IMG/VR virus record: IMGVR_UViG_3300033153_010326
Location: 40,369 to 104,368 of that record
DNA length: 64,000 nt
Strand: one strand, 5' to 3'
From: a virus
Below the pieces are notes generated by a model. The model searched no databases. It was not told the origin of the DNA and saw nothing but the letters and a program-made list of their open reading frames with translations. Numbering within the stretch: position 1 is the stretch's first letter; every line of letters starts with the position of its first letter. This document shows, one piece after another, positions 3 through 40,595 of this stretch. A program made the position numbers and the translations under genes.

Positions 3-635
3 AAAGAGGTAATATTTTTTATAGATGAAATAGATACTATGGATTGGAAAATTTTAAAGATTTTAAATCCTATTATAGAACAGTTTGAAATTAATGGAAA
101 GAAAATAAAGCCCTTTGTATTTGCAAGTGCAACCATTAACAAGCATACTTTAATTAAAAATAATCCCGATACGCTTGACCGAATTCCACATCATATTCAA
201 TTTCATAGATACACTGCTAACGATATAAGTAAAATTATAACTCAATATAAAAATCATTTATATACTGATGAAAATATCCCTAAAGAAGCTATTGAAGTTA
301 TTTCTCATTCTTGTAAATTTAATCCTAGAACTGCTATAGCATTATTAGAAGATTATATTATAGAAAGAAATATGAATATAGTTTTAAAGAATAATAAGAT
401 TATAAGGAATGGTTTAAATGATATTGATATATCTGTCCTAAAAATATTAAACAACTCTACAAGGGCTATAGGGGCGAATTCTTTGGCTATGCAAGTAGGT
501 CTATCACAAAATCAATACATAAGAGAATTTGAACCTTTTTTAGTAGAATTTGGATATATTGCTCGTATTCCGTCAAGAATAATAACACAACTGGGAAGAA
601 TAACATTGGAGAAATTAAATGATAAAATTAACTAA
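3..635 (+). CDS. ruvB: RuvB-like Holliday junction branch-migration AAA+ ATPase (5' truncated)
   Basis: Frame open from base 3: Walker B IFFIDEID, sensor FASAT, NPR, C-terminal winged helix EPFLVEFGYIAR. Confidence 0.85.
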   Translation, partial: KEVIFFIDEIDTMDWKILKILNPIIEQFEINGKKIKPFVFASATINKHTLIKNNPDTLDRIPHHIQFHRYTANDISKIITQYKNHLYTDENIPKEAIEVISHSCKFNPRTAIALLEDYIIERNMNIVLKNNKIIRNGLNDIDISVLKILNNSTRAIGANSLAMQVGLSQNQYIREFEPFLVEFGYIARIPSRIITQLGRITLEKLNDKIN

Positions 636-1149
636 TAAAGAAAAATATTGGTTAGCAGGATTTATTGATGGTGATGGTTGCATAGCTATAAGATTAGGCT
701 ATATATCACATAAAAGAAAAAAATTTAAATTATATAAAACCTATAGTTATATTAGACCTTCGGTAGAAATAGGAAATACCGATAAAAATGTTATAAAAGA
801 AATTTCTAAATTATTAAATTCTAAATATAGAACTATAAAAAGAAAAAGAGGATATAAAAACTTTTATATTATTACATTATCAATTAAAAGCAGTATAGAA
901 TTATTAATCATTATTAAAAATTCATTAAAAATAAAAAAACCTCAAACAGAACTATGTTTACATTTATATAAAACTTTTAGTAATCATAAAAGAACAATTC
1001 AAGGAAGATTTAGAAAATTAGATAAAAGAACTATAAAAAAGAGGTTTTATTTATACAAACAATGTAAACTTTTAAATAAAAGAGGTAAACCAATAATAAA
1101 TAAAAATCAATTATTAAAAAAATTAAGAAAGGAAGGGTTAATAAAATGA
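619..1149 (+). CDS. Free-standing LAGLIDADG homing endonuclease
   Basis: YWLAGFIDGDGC motif; very basic protein. Confidence 0.9.
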   Translation: MIKLTNKEKYWLAGFIDGDGCIAIRLGYISHKRKKFKLYKTYSYIRPSVEIGNTDKNVIKEISKLLNSKYRTIKRKRGYKNFYIITLSIKSSIELLIIIKNSLKIKKPQTELCLHLYKTFSNHKRTIQGRFRKLDKRTIKKRFYLYKQCKLLNKRGKPIINKNQLLKKLRKEGLIK

Positions 1150-4550: not shown

Positions 4551-4783
4551 AATATATAATTATATTAATAATGATGATGGCTTTTATATTTCCTATGAAA
4601 GAAGTTAAACCTTCTTCTAATATTGAAACTATTGTAGATAAAATGGAACAATGGCAAAGAGATAATTTAGAAAAGAAAGCGGAAAGATTAGATAGGATTA
4701 GGCAAATTATTAATATAAGAGATAGAGTAGAAGGTAAAATAAAGAAACCTAAAAAGCCCAAGAAGCCTAAAAAGGAGAAATAA
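4547..4783 (+). CDS. Signal/TM-anchored small protein
   Basis: Hydrophobic N-terminus, KKP repeats at C-terminus. Confidence 0.55.
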   Translation: MKYIIILIMMMAFIFPMKEVKPSSNIETIVDKMEQWQRDNLEKKAERLDRIRQIINIRDRVEGKIKKPKKPKKPKKEK

Positions 4784-4952
4784 AGTGAAAGTTATTAATT
4801 TGATAAAAAATAATGAAAAAATAAATTTATGGGAATTTAGCAGGTAATATGAAAGTAATATTAATTGTGGGAGATAAAATTGAGGAATATAAAAAGAAAG
4901 TAGGATTTTGGACAGAAACTCATTATAGAAAAATAGATTATAAGAGGAAGAA

Positions 4953-5195
4953 ATGAAAGATAAAGATATAAAATTATTCTCAAAAGCGATACATAACGCA
5001 AAAAAAGTTATACAAGATATAGAAACAGAAAGACAAAAAGCACATGAAAAATTAAATAAATCAATACATACTATAAAACAAGTTCGTAATTCTCATGATA
5101 AAAAAATGAAAAAATTAACAGAAGAAGTTAAAGAAATATTAGATGAAGTTTATGAATTGTTTGAAGATTTGTATGAAGAAAAAACAGGAGAATAA
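4953..5195 (+). CDS. Coiled-coil hypothetical protein
   Basis: 80-aa ORF with RBS. Confidence 0.6.
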   Translation: MKDKDIKLFSKAIHNAKKVIQDIETERQKAHEKLNKSIHTIKQVRNSHDKKMKKLTEEVKEILDEVYELFEDLYEEKTGE

Positions 5196-5196
5196 A

Positions 5197-5442
5197 ATGG
5201 ATAATGATTTTGTTTTAATTAGACTTGAAAGATTAGCAAAAAAAATATCAACTTTAGAGGGAACTCTTTTAACTACATCTAATATGTTAGAAGATAAGGA
5301 TAACAAAGATTCTGTTTATTATGCAAAAGAAAATATAGAAGGAGTTGCAGAATTTTTAAATGATATAAGAAATGACGTAGATTTATTGTGCGAACAAATT
5401 AATAAAAAAGAAACAGGATTAGATTTGGAAAATCCATTTTAA
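5197..5442 (+). CDS. Hypothetical protein
   Basis: AGGAG RBS before ATG 5197. Confidence 0.6.
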   Translation: MDNDFVLIRLERLAKKISTLEGTLLTTSNMLEDKDNKDSVYYAKENIEGVAEFLNDIRNDVDLLCEQINKKETGLDLENPF

Positions 5443-5457
5443 AGGAGAAAACTAAAT

Positions 5458-5826
5458 ATGCCTTATATCTCAGCGAAAAATGATAGAAGAAAGAAATTAA
5501 GACATGGAGAACCTGCTTTAAATGCAGGAGAGTTAAATTATCAAATTTTCTATTATATTAAACATTATGATTGGAGAAAACATCACCAAATTGATTATAC
5601 AATGATACAAACTATACATAAATTTGTTAATAAATTTTTAGGAAAAAATCCTAATTACCAGAGGTGGAATGATATGACAGGTTGTTTGATAAGATGTTAT
5701 AAAGAAATTAAAAGAAGGTTGAATATAAATGTTAAGGAGATATTGATAGAGATTATGGAAGATTATGATAATGAAATTGCAAGATACGAAGATACTAAAA
5801 TTATTTCTAATTCGGATGTAGAGTAG
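5458..5826 (+). CDS. Conserved phage protein (DUF6899-like)
   Basis: MPYI...AGELNY...YEDTKI..NSDV pattern. Confidence 0.65.
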   Translation: MPYISAKNDRRKKLRHGEPALNAGELNYQIFYYIKHYDWRKHHQIDYTMIQTIHKFVNKFLGKNPNYQRWNDMTGCLIRCYKEIKRRLNINVKEILIEIMEDYDNEIARYEDTKIISNSDVE

Positions 5827-5834
5827 GAGATAAT

Positions 5835-6098
5835 ATGAAACTATTAGCTACTAAAAAAATGAAACAATTATTAAGAAAAGGAAAATATTTAGCAAAAAAA
5901 GATAAACTTAAAGTAACTAGTCCAGATTATATGTATATGCTTATAAATGATACTCTTAAAAACGGATGGCATTATAATGTGGATTTATCTTATTCTGGAA
6001 TACATGTATATGCTTTTAAACCTCCTTTGGATTTTAGGGCTAGACCAGCAGATTATTATTTAGCAAGTAAATTTAAAAAACGAAAAGGAGGTGGTTAA
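5835..6098 (+). CDS. Hypothetical protein
   Basis: 87-aa ORF, AGGAG RBS. Confidence 0.6.
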   Translation: MKLLATKKMKQLLRKGKYLAKKDKLKVTSPDYMYMLINDTLKNGWHYNVDLSYSGIHVYAFKPPLDFRARPADYYLASKFKKRKGGG

Positions 6099-6099
6099 T

Positions 6100-6776
6100 A
6101 TGATAGGTAAGATAATTAGAATCTTAAAATTCAAATTATTCTATACCTATCTTTGAAGCTAGCAGGAGCGATTGAGTTTGATACCAAAGATGGTGGTCAA
6201 ACTTGGAGGAATAGTATAACTATTCCTTTAGATGAAATGGGAATTTATGTTGGAGACCCTGTAAAGACTGAACCTGTTGCTACTGGTATGGATGTTATGG
6301 AAGCTCAAAATAAATTTAATGGGTGGATTCAATCAGGTAATTATGATATATTTGAAAAGATGTTTACAAGAATTGTTCAAAAAGATATTAGATTAGTTAA
6401 TAGAGCAGATTTTTTGATTGTTCATTTATTTCCTGATATACCTACTACTGGAACTATTCACGAAATGGCTTTAGCGTGGATGCAAAAGAAACCTATATAT
6501 TTAATATGGAAAGATGCTAAGAGCAAATTATCAAAGTGGGCATTATATTTAGTTATTTCTTCAGGAGGGCGATTATTTGATAGTGAAAATAAACTTACAG
6601 AGTTTATAAGGGTAAAATATAATCTTAAAAATCAAAGTTTTAGAGTTCAATTTATTCAAATTATAAAAGCCATAAGTAGACTTATAGAGGAAAATTTATA
6701 TAATTTAAAAACGAATAGTAATGGTAATCAAGAAAAAATTAAACAGGACTTAGAAAAGAAAGAGGAGAAGAAATAA
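6100..6776 (+). CDS. Nucleoside 2-deoxyribosyltransferase-like protein, interrupted by an 8-nt stop-containing gap (recoding or pseudogene)
   Basis: AGGAGGT RBS and ATG 6100 give ...YTYL-stop (6154); another frame continues AGAIE...DIRLVNRADFL...GTIHEMALA..KKPI. Confidence 0.75.
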
Positions 6777-7492
6777 TGAGGCGATTTAAAGGAGGAGCTA
6801 CCAGAAATAATGATGAAAATAAAAATGATTATGATGGTTTTTTATCTTCCATGGTATTAAACAAATATGACCAATTTTTAGAAAGAGAAAATCAAATTGC
6901 ATGGGCTTCTGGTTTGTTTGAAGGAGAGGGTTGTGTTTTTAAAGCTACTACAAAAAACAAACATGCTCGTTTAGAAATTAAATTAACAGATGAAGATGTA
7001 TTACAAAGATTTTTAAAAATTGTTGGATATGGAAAAATATATGGGTCTTATTGGGCTAAAAAAAGTACAAAACCTTATTGGTCATGGCAATGCAACAAAG
7101 ACCAAGAAACTATAGAAGTATTAAAATTACTTTATCCTTATTTAGGAACAAGAAGAAAAAATAGAGTAAAAGAAATTTGTTCTATAGAAAGACTTGCTGA
7201 AATAAATGCAATGCCTCCTTTAGTTATAAAAGCTTTTGGTGATTATATGACTAAACATAGAAAACAAGCAGATGGAAAGTTAAGACCAAGTGATAATTGG
7301 AAAAAAGGCATACCTCAAGAAGCTTATTTCCAATCAGCATGGAGACATTTTTTAGATGTATATTTGCATCATAAAGGATATAATGATAAAACTACAGAAA
7401 ATCTAGAAGATTCTCTTTGTGCATTGATTTTTAATATAATGGGATATTTGCATGAATTATTGAAAAATAAATTATTGAAGGATAAAAAATAA
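6776..7492 (+). CDS. dATP/dGTP diphosphohydrolase-like (DUF5664) protein with in-frame LAGLIDADG insertion
   Basis: F.GGATR..D..K.DYDGFLS / PLVIKAFGDYM..H...DNWKKGIP...SAWRH...LCALIFN flanking WASGLFEGEG. Confidence 0.8.
   Translation: MRRFKGGATRNNDENKNDYDGFLSSMVLNKYDQFLERENQIAWASGLFEGEGCVFKATTKNKHARLEIKLTDEDVLQRFLKIVGYGKIYGSYWAKKSTKPYWSWQCNKDQETIEVLKLLYPYLGTRRKNRVKEICSIERLAEINAMPPLVIKAFGDYMTKHRKQADGKLRPSDNWKKGIPQEAYFQSAWRHFLDVYLHHKGYNDKTTENLEDSLCALIFNIMGYLHELLKNKLLKDKK
6848..7216 (+). mobile_element. In-frame LAGLIDADG endonuclease domain insertion (123 codons)
   Basis: IAWASGLFEGEGC motif; no intein block A or C-terminal HN. Confidence 0.75.
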
Positions 7493-7779
7493 AATGATAA
7501 ATCTATCTTATGAAAAACAAATAAATATGCTTGTTAAAGATGTTGTAAAATGGATGAGATTAACATTTGTTATGTTTGTAGTAGGTTTATTTTTAGGAGT
7601 AATATTATTTTAATAGGAGGAAGAGATGTTAGGTTATGAATGTCCTAAATGTGGTACTGTAAAATTCCCTGATGGAAAAGGATGTCAATGTGGGGAGAGT
7701 TATGGTGCTTTAAAAGTAATTCGATTAAAAAATACATTGAAACCAAAAAAAGACAGAGAATATTATGGAGAAAGAGATT

Positions 7780-8022
7780 ATGACTAAAAAAGAACAATTA
7801 ATAATTCAATATATATTATATGCAATGGAATATATGAAAGAAGCAAGTAAATTATGTACTAAATTACCTGAGAAAGAAATTAAGTACTTACTTGAAGATT
7901 ATTTATATATTATAGGAAAATCAACTCAGGAATTAGGAATAGGGTTGGCAACTTTAGGAACTGATATTTCTAATTCTGGATTTGAAAAATTGATGAAAAA
8001 ACTAATGAGGAAACGTAAATGA
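7780..8022 (+). CDS. Hypothetical protein
   Basis: ORF coupled to next gene. Confidence 0.55.
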   Translation: MTKKEQLIIQYILYAMEYMKEASKLCTKLPEKEIKYLLEDYLYIIGKSTQELGIGLATLGTDISNSGFEKLMKKLMRKRK

Positions 8023-8234
8023 GAATAATTGTAAAACAAGTAAATAATAAAGATAGACAAATGGAGGAATTAGAAAAAGCTCTTAAAAAGCTTAAAAAGA
8101 AGCTTGATAAGGAGGGAGTATTTAAACTTTTAAGACAGAGGAAATATTTTAGTAAACCTAGTGAAATAAGACATATGAAATTAATGAAAATATTACATGA
8201 CCAGAAAAAAAGGAAAAGACGTGGAAAGAAATAA
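8019..8234 (+). CDS. rpsU: Ribosomal protein bS21
   Basis: LEKALKKLKKK...EGVFKLLRQRKYFSKPSEIR matches the bS21 signature. Confidence 0.9.
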   Translation: MRIIVKQVNNKDRQMEELEKALKKLKKKLDKEGVFKLLRQRKYFSKPSEIRHMKLMKILHDQKKRKRRGKK

Positions 8235-9561: not shown

Positions 9562-10326
9562 ATGAAATTTAAAGTAGCTATAATTAAAGACGGTCAACAG
9601 CTTATTAAATTTGTATTAGATGATGGTGAGGAAATTTGGGCAGAAACTTCTCAAAAGGTTTATGATTTTGCCAAGAAGAATTTTGAAGAAAATGAAATTT
9701 GTGATTTTGATTATGAAGAAAAAGACGATGGTAGTTATTATGTAGATAGAATCCTAAAGAAAGAAGGAGGAAGTTCTTCTAAACCTTCTCCTAAGAAAAG
9801 AGGCAGAGGTAGACCTAAGAAATTTTCTTCTTCAACATCAGGAAAAGTTTGTGAGTGCGGTACAGAAATAAAAAATGCTAAATATAGTCAATGCTACGAA
9901 TGTAATCAAGCAAAGAAGAAAACGAAATCAGAAGGTGGGAAGTATTGTGAATGTGGTACTGAGATAAAGAATACTAAGTATGATAAGTGTTATGAGTGTA
10001 ATCAAGCAGGAAAAGAAGAAAAATCAGATGATAAGAAATATTGTACATGTGGAACAGAGATAAAAAATCATAAGTATGATAAATGTTATAATTGCAACAA
10101 AGAAAATAAAGGTTCTTCTGGTTCTGGAAAGCCTGATTATGAAAAAGGTGCTCCTTATGGTTCTGTAACTGAAGGGGAAGCAATTAGAAGAAATAAATTA
10201 GCAGTATTGGGAAGTATAGCTTCTGCTATAGGTACTGCTATGGCAGGTCAAGTAGAAGACGCAGATGCTCTTATTGATATGATTATTGAAGCACATAAGA
10301 AGATTTATAAGGAATTGTTTGGATAA
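9562..10326 (+). CDS. Putative DNA-binding protein (OB-like N-domain, AT-hook, three zinc-finger repeats)
   Basis: KKRGRGRPKK; 3x CxCGTEIKNxKYxxCYxCN. Confidence 0.7.
   Translation: MKFKVAIIKDGQQLIKFVLDDGEEIWAETSQKVYDFAKKNFEENEICDFDYEEKDDGSYYVDRILKKEGGSSSKPSPKKRGRGRPKKFSSSTSGKVCECGTEIKNAKYSQCYECNQAKKKTKSEGGKYCECGTEIKNTKYDKCYECNQAGKEEKSDDKKYCTCGTEIKNHKYDKCYNCNKENKGSSGSGKPDYEKGAPYGSVTEGEAIRRNKLAVLGSIASAIGTAMAGQVEDADALIDMIIEAHKKIYKELFG
9850..10098 (+). repeat. Three zinc-finger coding repeats, 96-bp period
   Basis: Units begin at 9850, 9946 and 10042. Confidence 0.85.
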
Positions 10327-10339
10327 AATTAAGATTTAT

Positions 10340-10412
10340 TGTCTCGTAAGTAGTTAAGATTTGTCGCATCGGACAATAGTGCTGGAATCCATTTTTTAAC
10401 GAAAGCGAGACA
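10340..10412 (+). ncRNA. Candidate structured RNA with loop-E/sarcin-ricin motif
   Basis: TGTCTCGT/GCGAGACA stem, AGTA/GAA internal loop, GTTAAGA/TTTTAAC stem, TTGTC/GACAA hairpin. Confidence 0.55.
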
Positions 10413-10414
10413 TA

Positions 10415-10618
10415 TTGTATAAAGAGGATAGGATTAATTTTTCGGAACTCGATTACGCGCTTAGACGCAGGAACATGAAAACTATGATTACGCAACTCAT
10501 TGATAATACTGGACTTAGAGATAAAGCTACTAAACAATATATTTATATTTTATATATGACAAGAGCTGTGAAAACTGAACATTTACATGAATTACTTGAT
10601 AAAGTTATGGAGAACTAA
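10415..10618 (+). CDS. Hypothetical protein (start uncertain)
   Basis: 67-aa ORF; an internal ATG preceded by AGGA may be the true start. Confidence 0.45.
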   Translation: MYKEDRINFSELDYALRRRNMKTMITQLIDNTGLRDKATKQYIYILYMTRAVKTEHLHELLDKVMEN

Positions 10619-10829
10619 AATGTTTGGATGGCTGATAGGAGATGTTACTAAAGATGTAGTAGTTTTAATGAATGAAATTATCCAAATAATGAAAATTATG
10701 CTGATAGGTGGAGGGGTTTGTTTATTTATTATTTGGATAACAATTATATTTAAAAAATGATTATTCGTATAAGTACATTAAATTAACACTTTAGTTAATT
10801 AACTGTATTTGAAAATAAAAGGAAGAAAT

Positions 10830-40020: not shown

Positions 40021-40595
40021 TGAATAAACAAAATAAAAATTTTAATAAAAAATTAAGGTCAGGAGAAAGACAAGTTCGTAATGATTTACATAAAATGCAA
40101 TGGAATCAAAAATGGAGATATTGTAAAGCTTTGAATTATATTAAACAAGAAAATACCGTATTAGATATAGGTACAGGATGTGGTTCTGGAGCTTATATTC
40201 TTTCATTATTAGCAAAAAAAGTAATAGGAATAGATGATAGTGAAGAAGCTATAAAATTTGCTAAAATGAATTGGTCAACTTCCAATATAGAATTTTTTTG
40301 CCAAGATGCTTTAAATTTACAAGGTAAATACGATATTATAACAGCTTTTGAATTAATAGAACATATTAAAGATGATATAAAATTATTTATTAAATTTAAG
40401 CAACTTAATCCTAAATATATTATTATATCAGTTCCTCATATTTCAGTACCTTTATCTAGGTCTAAATGGCATTGGAAACATTATAAACAAAAAGAAATTA
40501 ATAAATTATTTAATAATATAGGATATAAAGTAATTGTTAATGATATAATAAAATTTGGAAATTTAGCTATTTTTGCAGTAGCAGAAAGGAAATAA
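40020..40595 (+). CDS. Class I SAM methyltransferase
   Basis: VLDIGTGCGSG, FELIEH. Confidence 0.9.
   Translation: MNKQNKNFNKKLRSGERQVRNDLHKMQWNQKWRYCKALNYIKQENTVLDIGTGCGSGAYILSLLAKKVIGIDDSEEAIKFAKMNWSTSNIEFFCQDALNLQGKYDIITAFELIEHIKDDIKLFIKFKQLNPKYIIISVPHISVPLSRSKWHWKHYKQKEINKLFNNIGYKVIVNDIIKFGNLAIFAVAERK

Follow-up and report, generated by a model that had tools for sequence, protein, structure and literature searches.

How can a homing endonuclease gene lie inside a coding region when nothing is there to take it out again? Homing endonucleases are thought to persist within genes only via removal with an intron or intein, and a tolerated protein domain would be a third way. The question is raised by a 64,000-nucleotide (nt) stretch of viral DNA (the window), in which one open reading frame (ORF) joins a DUF5664 deoxynucleoside triphosphate (dNTP) pyrophosphohydrolase with an internal LAGLIDADG endonuclease domain. 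The window runs from base 40369 to base 104368 of IMG/VR record IMGVR_UViG_3300033153_010326, a virus record that is complete at 104,368 bp and has direct terminal repeats. The original prediction, made from the letters of the window, described this ORF as an in-frame insertion with neither intron nor intein. As read from the sequence, nothing appears to remove the insert at the RNA or protein level, and a single polypeptide is predicted to be made.

Host enzyme, insert and joints

Among 5.8 billion proteins searched, over 100 are homologues of the host enzyme that lack the insert (130-180 amino acids (aa), 50-69% identical to the flanks of the insert), and a further 10 have the full fusion architecture (45-53% identical over 97% of the length). 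Matches to insert-less proteins, several of them annotated as PF18909, reached phmmer E-values of 1e-28 to 1e-37. In all, ~20 distinct metagenomic phage carriers of the insert were found, including the metagenome loci L082-L084. When the window protein was aligned with 15 insert-less homologues and 10 further carriers (alignment A1), the extra block fell exactly between DYxGF(LS) and (LS)PLVLxxFGxYMxKHRKQADG, where the insert-less proteins run on unbroken; the flanks are thus one continuous DUF5664 domain, as had been predicted. The limits first proposed for the insert, codons 25-147 (6848-7216), proved right to within one codon: their deletion gives LS-PPLVI against the consensus LS-PLV, and the exact boundary is ambiguous, since host residues occur in duplicate at either end of the insert. 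PF18909 (dGTP_diPhyd_N, formerly DUF5664) matches aa 172-236 at profile positions 38-98 of 99 only, because the insert splits the domain, with a score of 21.3 bits for the whole protein and 23.4 bits for the C-terminal part alone (cut-off 27).

The two host parts remain those of an intact family member. The window protein retains the family residues F4, G7, A8, R10, G21, R170, N174, W175, S187, R190, H191, F219 and N220; in the 5' part of the host family, G21 is invariant and K16, D18, F22, S24 and V27 are nearly so. The 24-aa N-terminal arm of the carriers still has the host-family invariant residues, as would be expected only of an arm that acts with the C-terminal part of the same chain. 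In the structural model of an insert-less protein (predicted local distance difference test score (pLDDT) 88), the insertion site lies at residues 23-24, in the turn that joins a short helix (19-22) to helix alpha-1 (25-38). The host fold weakly resembles the MazG-like all-alpha NTP pyrophosphohydrolases (2p06, Z 8.4; MazG, Z about 5); a sequence search of the PDB with the host domain gave no significant match, and Foldseek returned MazG-like rows at E>1 only. The host can be called an enzyme, as the original prediction did, because the stand-alone DUF5664 protein of Arthrobacter phage Wayne, the one family member with demonstrated activity, is a dNTP pyrophosphohydrolase that hydrolyses dATP, dGTP and dUTP to dNMP (PMC12884076).

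The insert is a compact single-motif LAGLIDADG endonuclease. LAGLIDADG_1 (PF00961) matches aa 45-131 with 25.1 bits in the whole protein and 26.3 bits in the insert alone (cut-off 23.1), and PHROG 5046, a family of 161-aa free-standing endonucleases, matches aa 38-136 (E 5e-19). Structure prediction likewise bore the proposal out, with the LAGLIDADG fold modelled in the fusion by AlphaFold2 (helices, H, and strands, E: H25-51, E52-56, E64-70, H73-83, E87-93, E100-106, H109-122; core pLDDT 84-96). The top Foldseek ranks for the insert are I-CvuI, I-MsoI and I-CreI (probability 1.0). In a profile built from the insert and its free-standing relatives, GLFEGEG aligns to the GLFEGDG of I-HjeMI and I-AniI; the match of the same profile to I-CvuI extends over 111 positions (E 2e-5). 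All carriers read have GLFEGEG (GIFEGEG in the case of P0124), and so do the free-standing relatives. E49 and E51 do not vary across 11 aligned carriers, nor does E51 (there E19) across the 22 members of A4. A catalytic motif so well conserved suggests continued nuclease activity.

Free-standing relatives of the insert are plentiful in phage contigs and have in common the motifs GLFEGEG, MTDEDV, KPxWxW and PYLGxRR. Some carry C-terminal Zn-ribbon or helix-turn-helix tails; the shortest are only ~100 aa (L055, L071), and the insert is therefore full-length for its own family. One relative, gp14 of Mycobacterium phage LittleE, is 35% identical to the insert and sits in a group I intron of a capsid gene, the splicing of which was shown by reverse transcription PCR (RT-PCR; PMC3706429). 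By its sequence relationships, the insert derives from a homing endonuclease lineage that is otherwise free-standing or intron-borne in phages. Free-standing members are commonly labelled 'HNH endonuclease' (PHROG 5046, LittleE gp14, and the members in cyanophage NATL2A-133 and Streptomyces phage Coruscant), an annotation error that hides a LAGLIDADG family.

The searches and the joints agree with the absence of Hint blocks and of room or signal for an intron, as claimed at the outset. Pfam at E<=1 gave no Hint or intein family in the fusion protein, and Rfam over 6000-8200 at E<=10 gave no intron family, its rows being chance matches to snoRNAs and miRNAs. Carriers differ in the first residue of the insert (S, E, A, P, H), and at the 3' joint (marked here by a slash) they have no His-Asn plus nucleophile, the sequence being NAM/PP in the window and AGI/PG or SGF/HP in others. 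Both joints are in open frame in all carriers, with insert lengths of 123-137 aa and no stop at the end of the insert. Only 13 codons on the N side and 11 on the C side separate the endonuclease core from host sequence, and an intein architecture is unlikely because 123 aa are too short for Hint plus LAGLIDADG. The insert is thus in frame on both sides, lacks splicing elements, forms a separate folded domain and leaves the host intact. The features of the gene and of the related loci are collected in Table 1.

Table 1. Coordinates of the fusion gene, its neighbours in the window and loci with LAGLIDADG genes beside DUF5664 genes
Feature	Position	Strand	Description
Whole fusion ORF	6776..7492	+	238 aa plus stop; DUF5664 dNTP pyrophosphohydrolase with internal LAGLIDADG domain
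Shine-Dalgarno-like AAGAGGAG	6760..6767	+	8 nt 5' of ATG 6776; read from sequence
Host N-terminal arm, codons 1-24	6776..6847	+	R2, F4, GATR 7-10, K16, D18 and GF 21-22 as in insert-less homologues
N-side linker SMVLNKYDQFLER, codons 25-37	6848..6886	+	Probably copied from host helix alpha-1 and since decayed; in the model it lengthens the LAGLIDADG helix at its N-terminal end
LAGLIDADG endonuclease core, codons 38-136	6887..7183	+	Alpha-beta-beta-alpha-beta-beta-alpha, pLDDT 84-96
LAGLIDADG motif AWASGLFEGEG, codons 42-52	6899..6931	+	Alignment of carriers and relatives
C-side linker SIERLAEINAM, codons 137-147	7184..7216	+	Carrier alignment
Host C-terminal part, codons 148-238	7217..7489	+	Alpha-1 PLVIKAFGDYM, HRKQADGKLR hairpin, SDNW, WRH, CAxxFN, GYLHE
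Nucleoside 2-deoxyribosyltransferase (NDT)-like partner gene	6100..6776	+	Directly upstream, translationally coupled to fusion ORF; frame broken by 8 nt, 6154-6161
Second LAGLIDADG gene in the window	619-1149	+	Free-standing, 176 aa, motif YWLAGFIDGDGC, PF00961 30.5 bits
L005 locus (also L004)	10001-10701		Free-standing LAGLIDADG and intact DUF5664; RecG-like helicase upstream, NT5C 5'-nucleotidase downstream
L118 locus	4944-5694		Free-standing member abutting intact DUF5664 gene
L111 locus (also L110)	4767-5694		Stub-fused LAGLIDADG ORF overlapping complete DUF5664 ORF
L141 locus	261-1119		Different LAGLIDADG subfamily (FAGFVDGEGH; PF00961 49 bits) just upstream of another DUF5664 gene

The genome is AT-rich (G+C about 26-28% around the fusion locus), and the ATG of the fusion shares bases with the stop codon of the upstream NDT-like gene (TAATG). 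In both the window and L111, an NDT-like gene adjoins the DUF5664 gene, as in the phage Wayne paper (PMC12884076). The ORF that starts at ATG 6100 ends in FYTYL at TGA 6154-6156, and the NDT-like domain resumes with AGAIEFD from 6162 in another frame, the 8 nt TGAAGCTA splitting its YLAG motif; the NDT-like genes adjoining the L111 and L001 loci appear unbroken. The second LAGLIDADG gene in the window belongs to a different subfamily from the insert and overlaps the end of a RuvB-like gene.

Duplicated host residues and the endonuclease lineage beside DUF5664 genes

The first residues of the insert had also been likened to the host helix downstream of it. This likeness is weak when the window protein is taken alone, with 1 of 10 residues identical; it emerged at the family level. 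With a position matrix from 205 insert-less proteins, 12 residues in fixed register after GF-LSxx were scored against 2,800 control windows. The helix-1 likeness score was in the top 8% of controls in 16 of 16 carriers and in the top 1% in 8 of them (0.14% for the window protein), although these carriers share ancestry and their scores are not 16 independent tests. P0006 (SPLVLERIDEY) and P0007 (SPIVLQRY) nearly match the host consensus SPLVLERFxEY, and several carriers have GFxP or GIxP just before the downstream helix, like a remnant of the host GFLS. At the DNA level, repeats at the joints were limited to low-complexity A-rich matches. That the start of the insert (~13 residues) is probably a decayed copy of host helix alpha-1 is supported at the family level.

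The same endonuclease lineage also occurs next to DUF5664 genes and half-fused to them. In two IMG/VR records (L004/L005), an intact DUF5664 gene is preceded by a free-standing member of 120 aa whose end overlaps the start of that gene by 4 nt; this member shares an RxRKDG..PEGYxxPRL loop with the carriers P0004, P0007, P0009 and P0010. The L110/L111 ORF, from two groundwater samples, consists of a 75-aa leader, host residues 1-17 (ending in IREFATGATCDTDEGKL), the LAGLIDADG domain and a stop, and it overlaps a complete DUF5664 ORF that begins anew with MRKFDSGATRD. In the unused host stub of L111, GATC stands in place of GATR, the invariant Arg being lost, and an NDT-like gene lies directly upstream. 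Taken together, the duplication, the GFxP remnant and the L111 stub point to insertion by recombination between an 'endonuclease gene plus DUF5664 gene' cassette and a resident gene. The arrangement at L141 implies that more than one endonuclease lineage uses the DUF5664 gene, the 5' part of which is a recurrent endonuclease landing place.

Selection, inheritance and competing explanations

For the pair L001 and L084, the ratio of nonsynonymous to synonymous substitution rates (dN/dS) is 0.11 in the insert including its linkers (dS 0.32) and 0.065 in the host parts. Synonymous divergence in this pair amounts to 0.32 in the insert and to 0.61 in the host; the counts behind the lower value of the insert are too small for inference. 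The insert is therefore translated and selectively kept, as judged from this one close pair, and together with the host invariants kept on both sides this substantiates the original view of a tolerated domain fusion. L082, the carrier closest to the window protein, is 69% identical to it in the LAGLIDADG core and 52% in the host parts; averaged over carriers, identity is 56% in the host and 47% in the insert. No frameshift, stop or truncation was found inside the LAGLIDADG domain of any carrier, and the carrier genes match their own genomes in G+C, from 28 to 47%. Long N-terminal extensions precede the DUF5664 arm in P0123 (420 aa, with an extension of ~180 aa), P0006 (323 aa) and P0004 (294 aa), and no Pfam family was found in them.

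The explanation that we consider best, and rate somewhat above an even chance, is an unspliced endonuclease lodged in the DUF5664 linker, coming from a lineage that targets the 5' part of DUF5664 genes and probably still active as a nuclease. The endonuclease lineage would target the conserved 5' part of these genes; in the carrier lineage, both recombination joints would have come to lie within the gene and in frame, with host residues ~22-37 present in two overlapping copies, each of which would then have decayed where it was not needed, an order of events that we infer. The endonuclease would be expressed from the ribosome-binding site and start codon of the host gene, and the host enzyme would still fold because the domain hangs off a surface linker. 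Least certain is its present activity: the nuclease may dimerise through its LAGLIDADG helices and cut insert-less DUF5664 alleles of co-infecting phages, into which the insert would then be copied along with a large part or the whole of the 345-nt host gene.

Several observations weigh against this explanation. The fusion model is moderate overall (predicted template modelling score 0.57) and its N-terminal arm is of low confidence, and the subclade P0003/P0005/P0121 lacks D74, otherwise invariant in 22 aligned members (MCDRGPL versus MTDEDV). The fusion is rare: neither the 185,579 species genomes nor the 50,697 phage records searched contain a carrier, and when 1.84 billion representatives were searched with a profile, ~9 clusters at 50% identity had the fusion, as against over 1,000 with the host domain only (E<1e-30). 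No insert-less allele was found near any carrier (the best for the window has 68-69% aa identity), nor any pair of closely similar alleles differing by presence of the insert, and the flanking genes of the window phage led to no close relative in IMG/VR. Holding all carriers in one clade yields a tree of higher likelihood than the quick-search host tree left unconstrained (approximately unbiased (AU) test, p 0.68), carriers that differ more in the host parts tend to differ more in the insert (Mantel r 0.48, p 2e-4), and the insert forms no compositional island (G+C 0.29 versus 0.27 in the flanks). The LAGLIDADG tree that includes free-standing members lacks resolution and supports neither passage from free-standing to internal forms nor the reverse; the host tree that includes the adjacent-type DUF5664 genes likewise gave no resolution, and both trees are too shallow to root.

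Two lines of evidence for movement were considered and rejected. Carrier polyphyly does not serve as proof of homing: a quick host tree put 11 carriers in 8 places, and the AU test favoured one clade. Incongruence between host and insert, by which the window groups with L082 by its insert (96/89) and with P0123 by its host parts (87/83), was not decisive in the AU test either: the host data do not reject window plus L082 (p 0.42), and the insert data reject window plus P0123 only at p 0.035, in a test picked after the trees had been seen. Nuclease activity is favoured by the motif common to all carriers, by the strong selection on the core, by the rarity of the fusion and by the selfish look of the sister arrangements. 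We found no direct sign of recent homing or mobility. The notion of a homing element, put forward in the original prediction, hence stands as to endonuclease origin, which the free-standing relatives and LittleE gp14 support, and finds no support as to ongoing movement in the AU and Mantel results, the equal G+C and the loss of D74 in one subclade. An old insertion passed down with its gene would account for the data, and so, equally well, would a cassette moving with the whole 345-nt gene.

A stronger version of the favoured explanation, which we hold only tentatively and place clearly below even, is a live splicing-free homing element: a bifunctional dNTPase-endonuclease, made from the start codon of the host gene, would cut insert-less DUF5664 genes of co-infecting phages and spread with its host gene, and the free-standing, stub-fused and in-frame forms would be successive stages. 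If this is true, these forms would trace one path from endonuclease gene to lasting protein domain.

Unlikely, although the strongest of the rivals, is domestication: a single old entry of a domain that now serves the phage without homing, by tethering the dNTPase to DNA or the replisome, by oligomerising, or by cutting host or competitor DNA. A single origin (not rejected by the AU test), the joint divergence of host and insert, an insert composition fully adjusted to the flanks, and strong purifying selection, with the window protein and L082 more alike in the core than in the host enzyme, would all be expected of such a domain, and the subclade with D74 changed stays under selection. However, domesticated LAGLIDADG proteins such as WhiA and the maturases usually lose the catalytic motif, and here GLFEGEG is kept in every carrier, identical to that of the free-standing relatives. 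Nor would a useful module be expected to be so rare in its host family, and the same lineage occurs in typical selfish arrangements beside DUF5664 genes.

It is highly improbable that the insert is removed after all, whether as an unrecognised intron (by splicing or translational bypass), as an atypical intein or by proteolytic release. To our knowledge, nearly all other endonuclease genes inside coding regions are removed with an intron or intein, which counts for such removal. The upstream gene may itself use a translational hop, proteolytic processing cannot be read from sequence, and a relative of the insert is intron-borne (PMC3706429). However, Rfam yielded no intron at the permissive threshold of E<=10, the linkers of ~13 and ~11 codons are both coding and under selection, and no stop ends the insert in ~20 carriers of variable insert length. 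An intein is further opposed by the missing Hint domain, by a junction nucleophile that is not conserved, by the lack of His-Asn and by an insert of 123 aa, which is too short. Finally, an inactive, functionless endonuclease remnant awaiting deletion is scarcely credible: the homing cycle does predict decay after fixation, and no evidence of recent transfer was found, but the insert has a dN/dS of 0.11, retains all family invariants in carriers only ~47% identical in the insert, and is free of frameshifts, stops and truncations throughout.

Comparison with known systems

The locus is a well-populated example of an endonuclease kept as a tolerated protein domain, with ~20 carriers, measured purifying selection and an intact catalytic motif. 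That the same lineage is seen next to, half-fused to and fully inside one small host gene adds the value of evolutionary intermediates, and a 28-kDa protein and a 345-nt target gene make the route from selfish gene to protein domain testable.

In intronless homing, free-standing phage endonuclease genes adjoin their target, an example being T4 mobA with the gene 60 bypass element. The adjacency at L004/L005 and L118 is of this kind, as is the 8-nt interruption in the NDT gene adjacent to the fusion; by analogy with mobA and gene 60, the fusion may be functionally linked to that interruption. However, the enzymes of intronless homing are GIY-YIG or HNH proteins encoded by separate genes, whereas here a LAGLIDADG frame is merged into the target protein.

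Fusions of endonuclease and host genes are also found in mitochondria, where they are in frame, use the expression signals of the host, duplicate the displaced host segment and leave the host protein complete. The fungal rps3/LAGLIDADG fusions (I-OnuI, I-LtrI) appear in PDB titles as 'Ribosomal protein 3/homing endonuclease-like protein fusion'. Like the mitochondrial fusions, the insertion in the window lies in a coding region, is read in frame with the host gene and has a host end duplicated. The rps3-type enzymes are double-motif monomers near the 3' end of the gene, forming a C-terminal extension, whereas the insert has a single motif and is internal, in frame on both sides and in a phage. 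In fold and motif it matches the homodimeric single-motif enzymes I-CreI, I-MsoI and I-CvuI (Foldseek template modelling score 0.5 by target length), with the acidic residue at the end of the motif kept; those enzymes, however, are intron-encoded and ~160 aa long with C-terminal helices, whereas the insert is ~100 aa long and 13-19% identical to them.

The nearest precedent is the Taj_79 group of actinobacteriophage DNA methylases, in which a lone in-frame LAGLIDADG domain lies outside any intein (Genes 2023, PMC9957025). As in that group, there is no splicing machinery, the insert forms a domain of its own in the AlphaFold model, and its divergence roughly tracks that of the host with no clear transfer (PMC9957025). 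The host differs, being a dNTP pyrophosphohydrolase and not a methylase, as does the LAGLIDADG subfamily, and selection on the insert has been measured here. In the literature, an in-frame unspliced LAGLIDADG domain has been described once, in these phage methylases (PMC9957025), and the present locus adds a member to a rare known type. New here, and absent from the Taj_79 comparison, are the free-standing upstream form, the stub-fused form and the decayed helix duplicate at the start of the insert.

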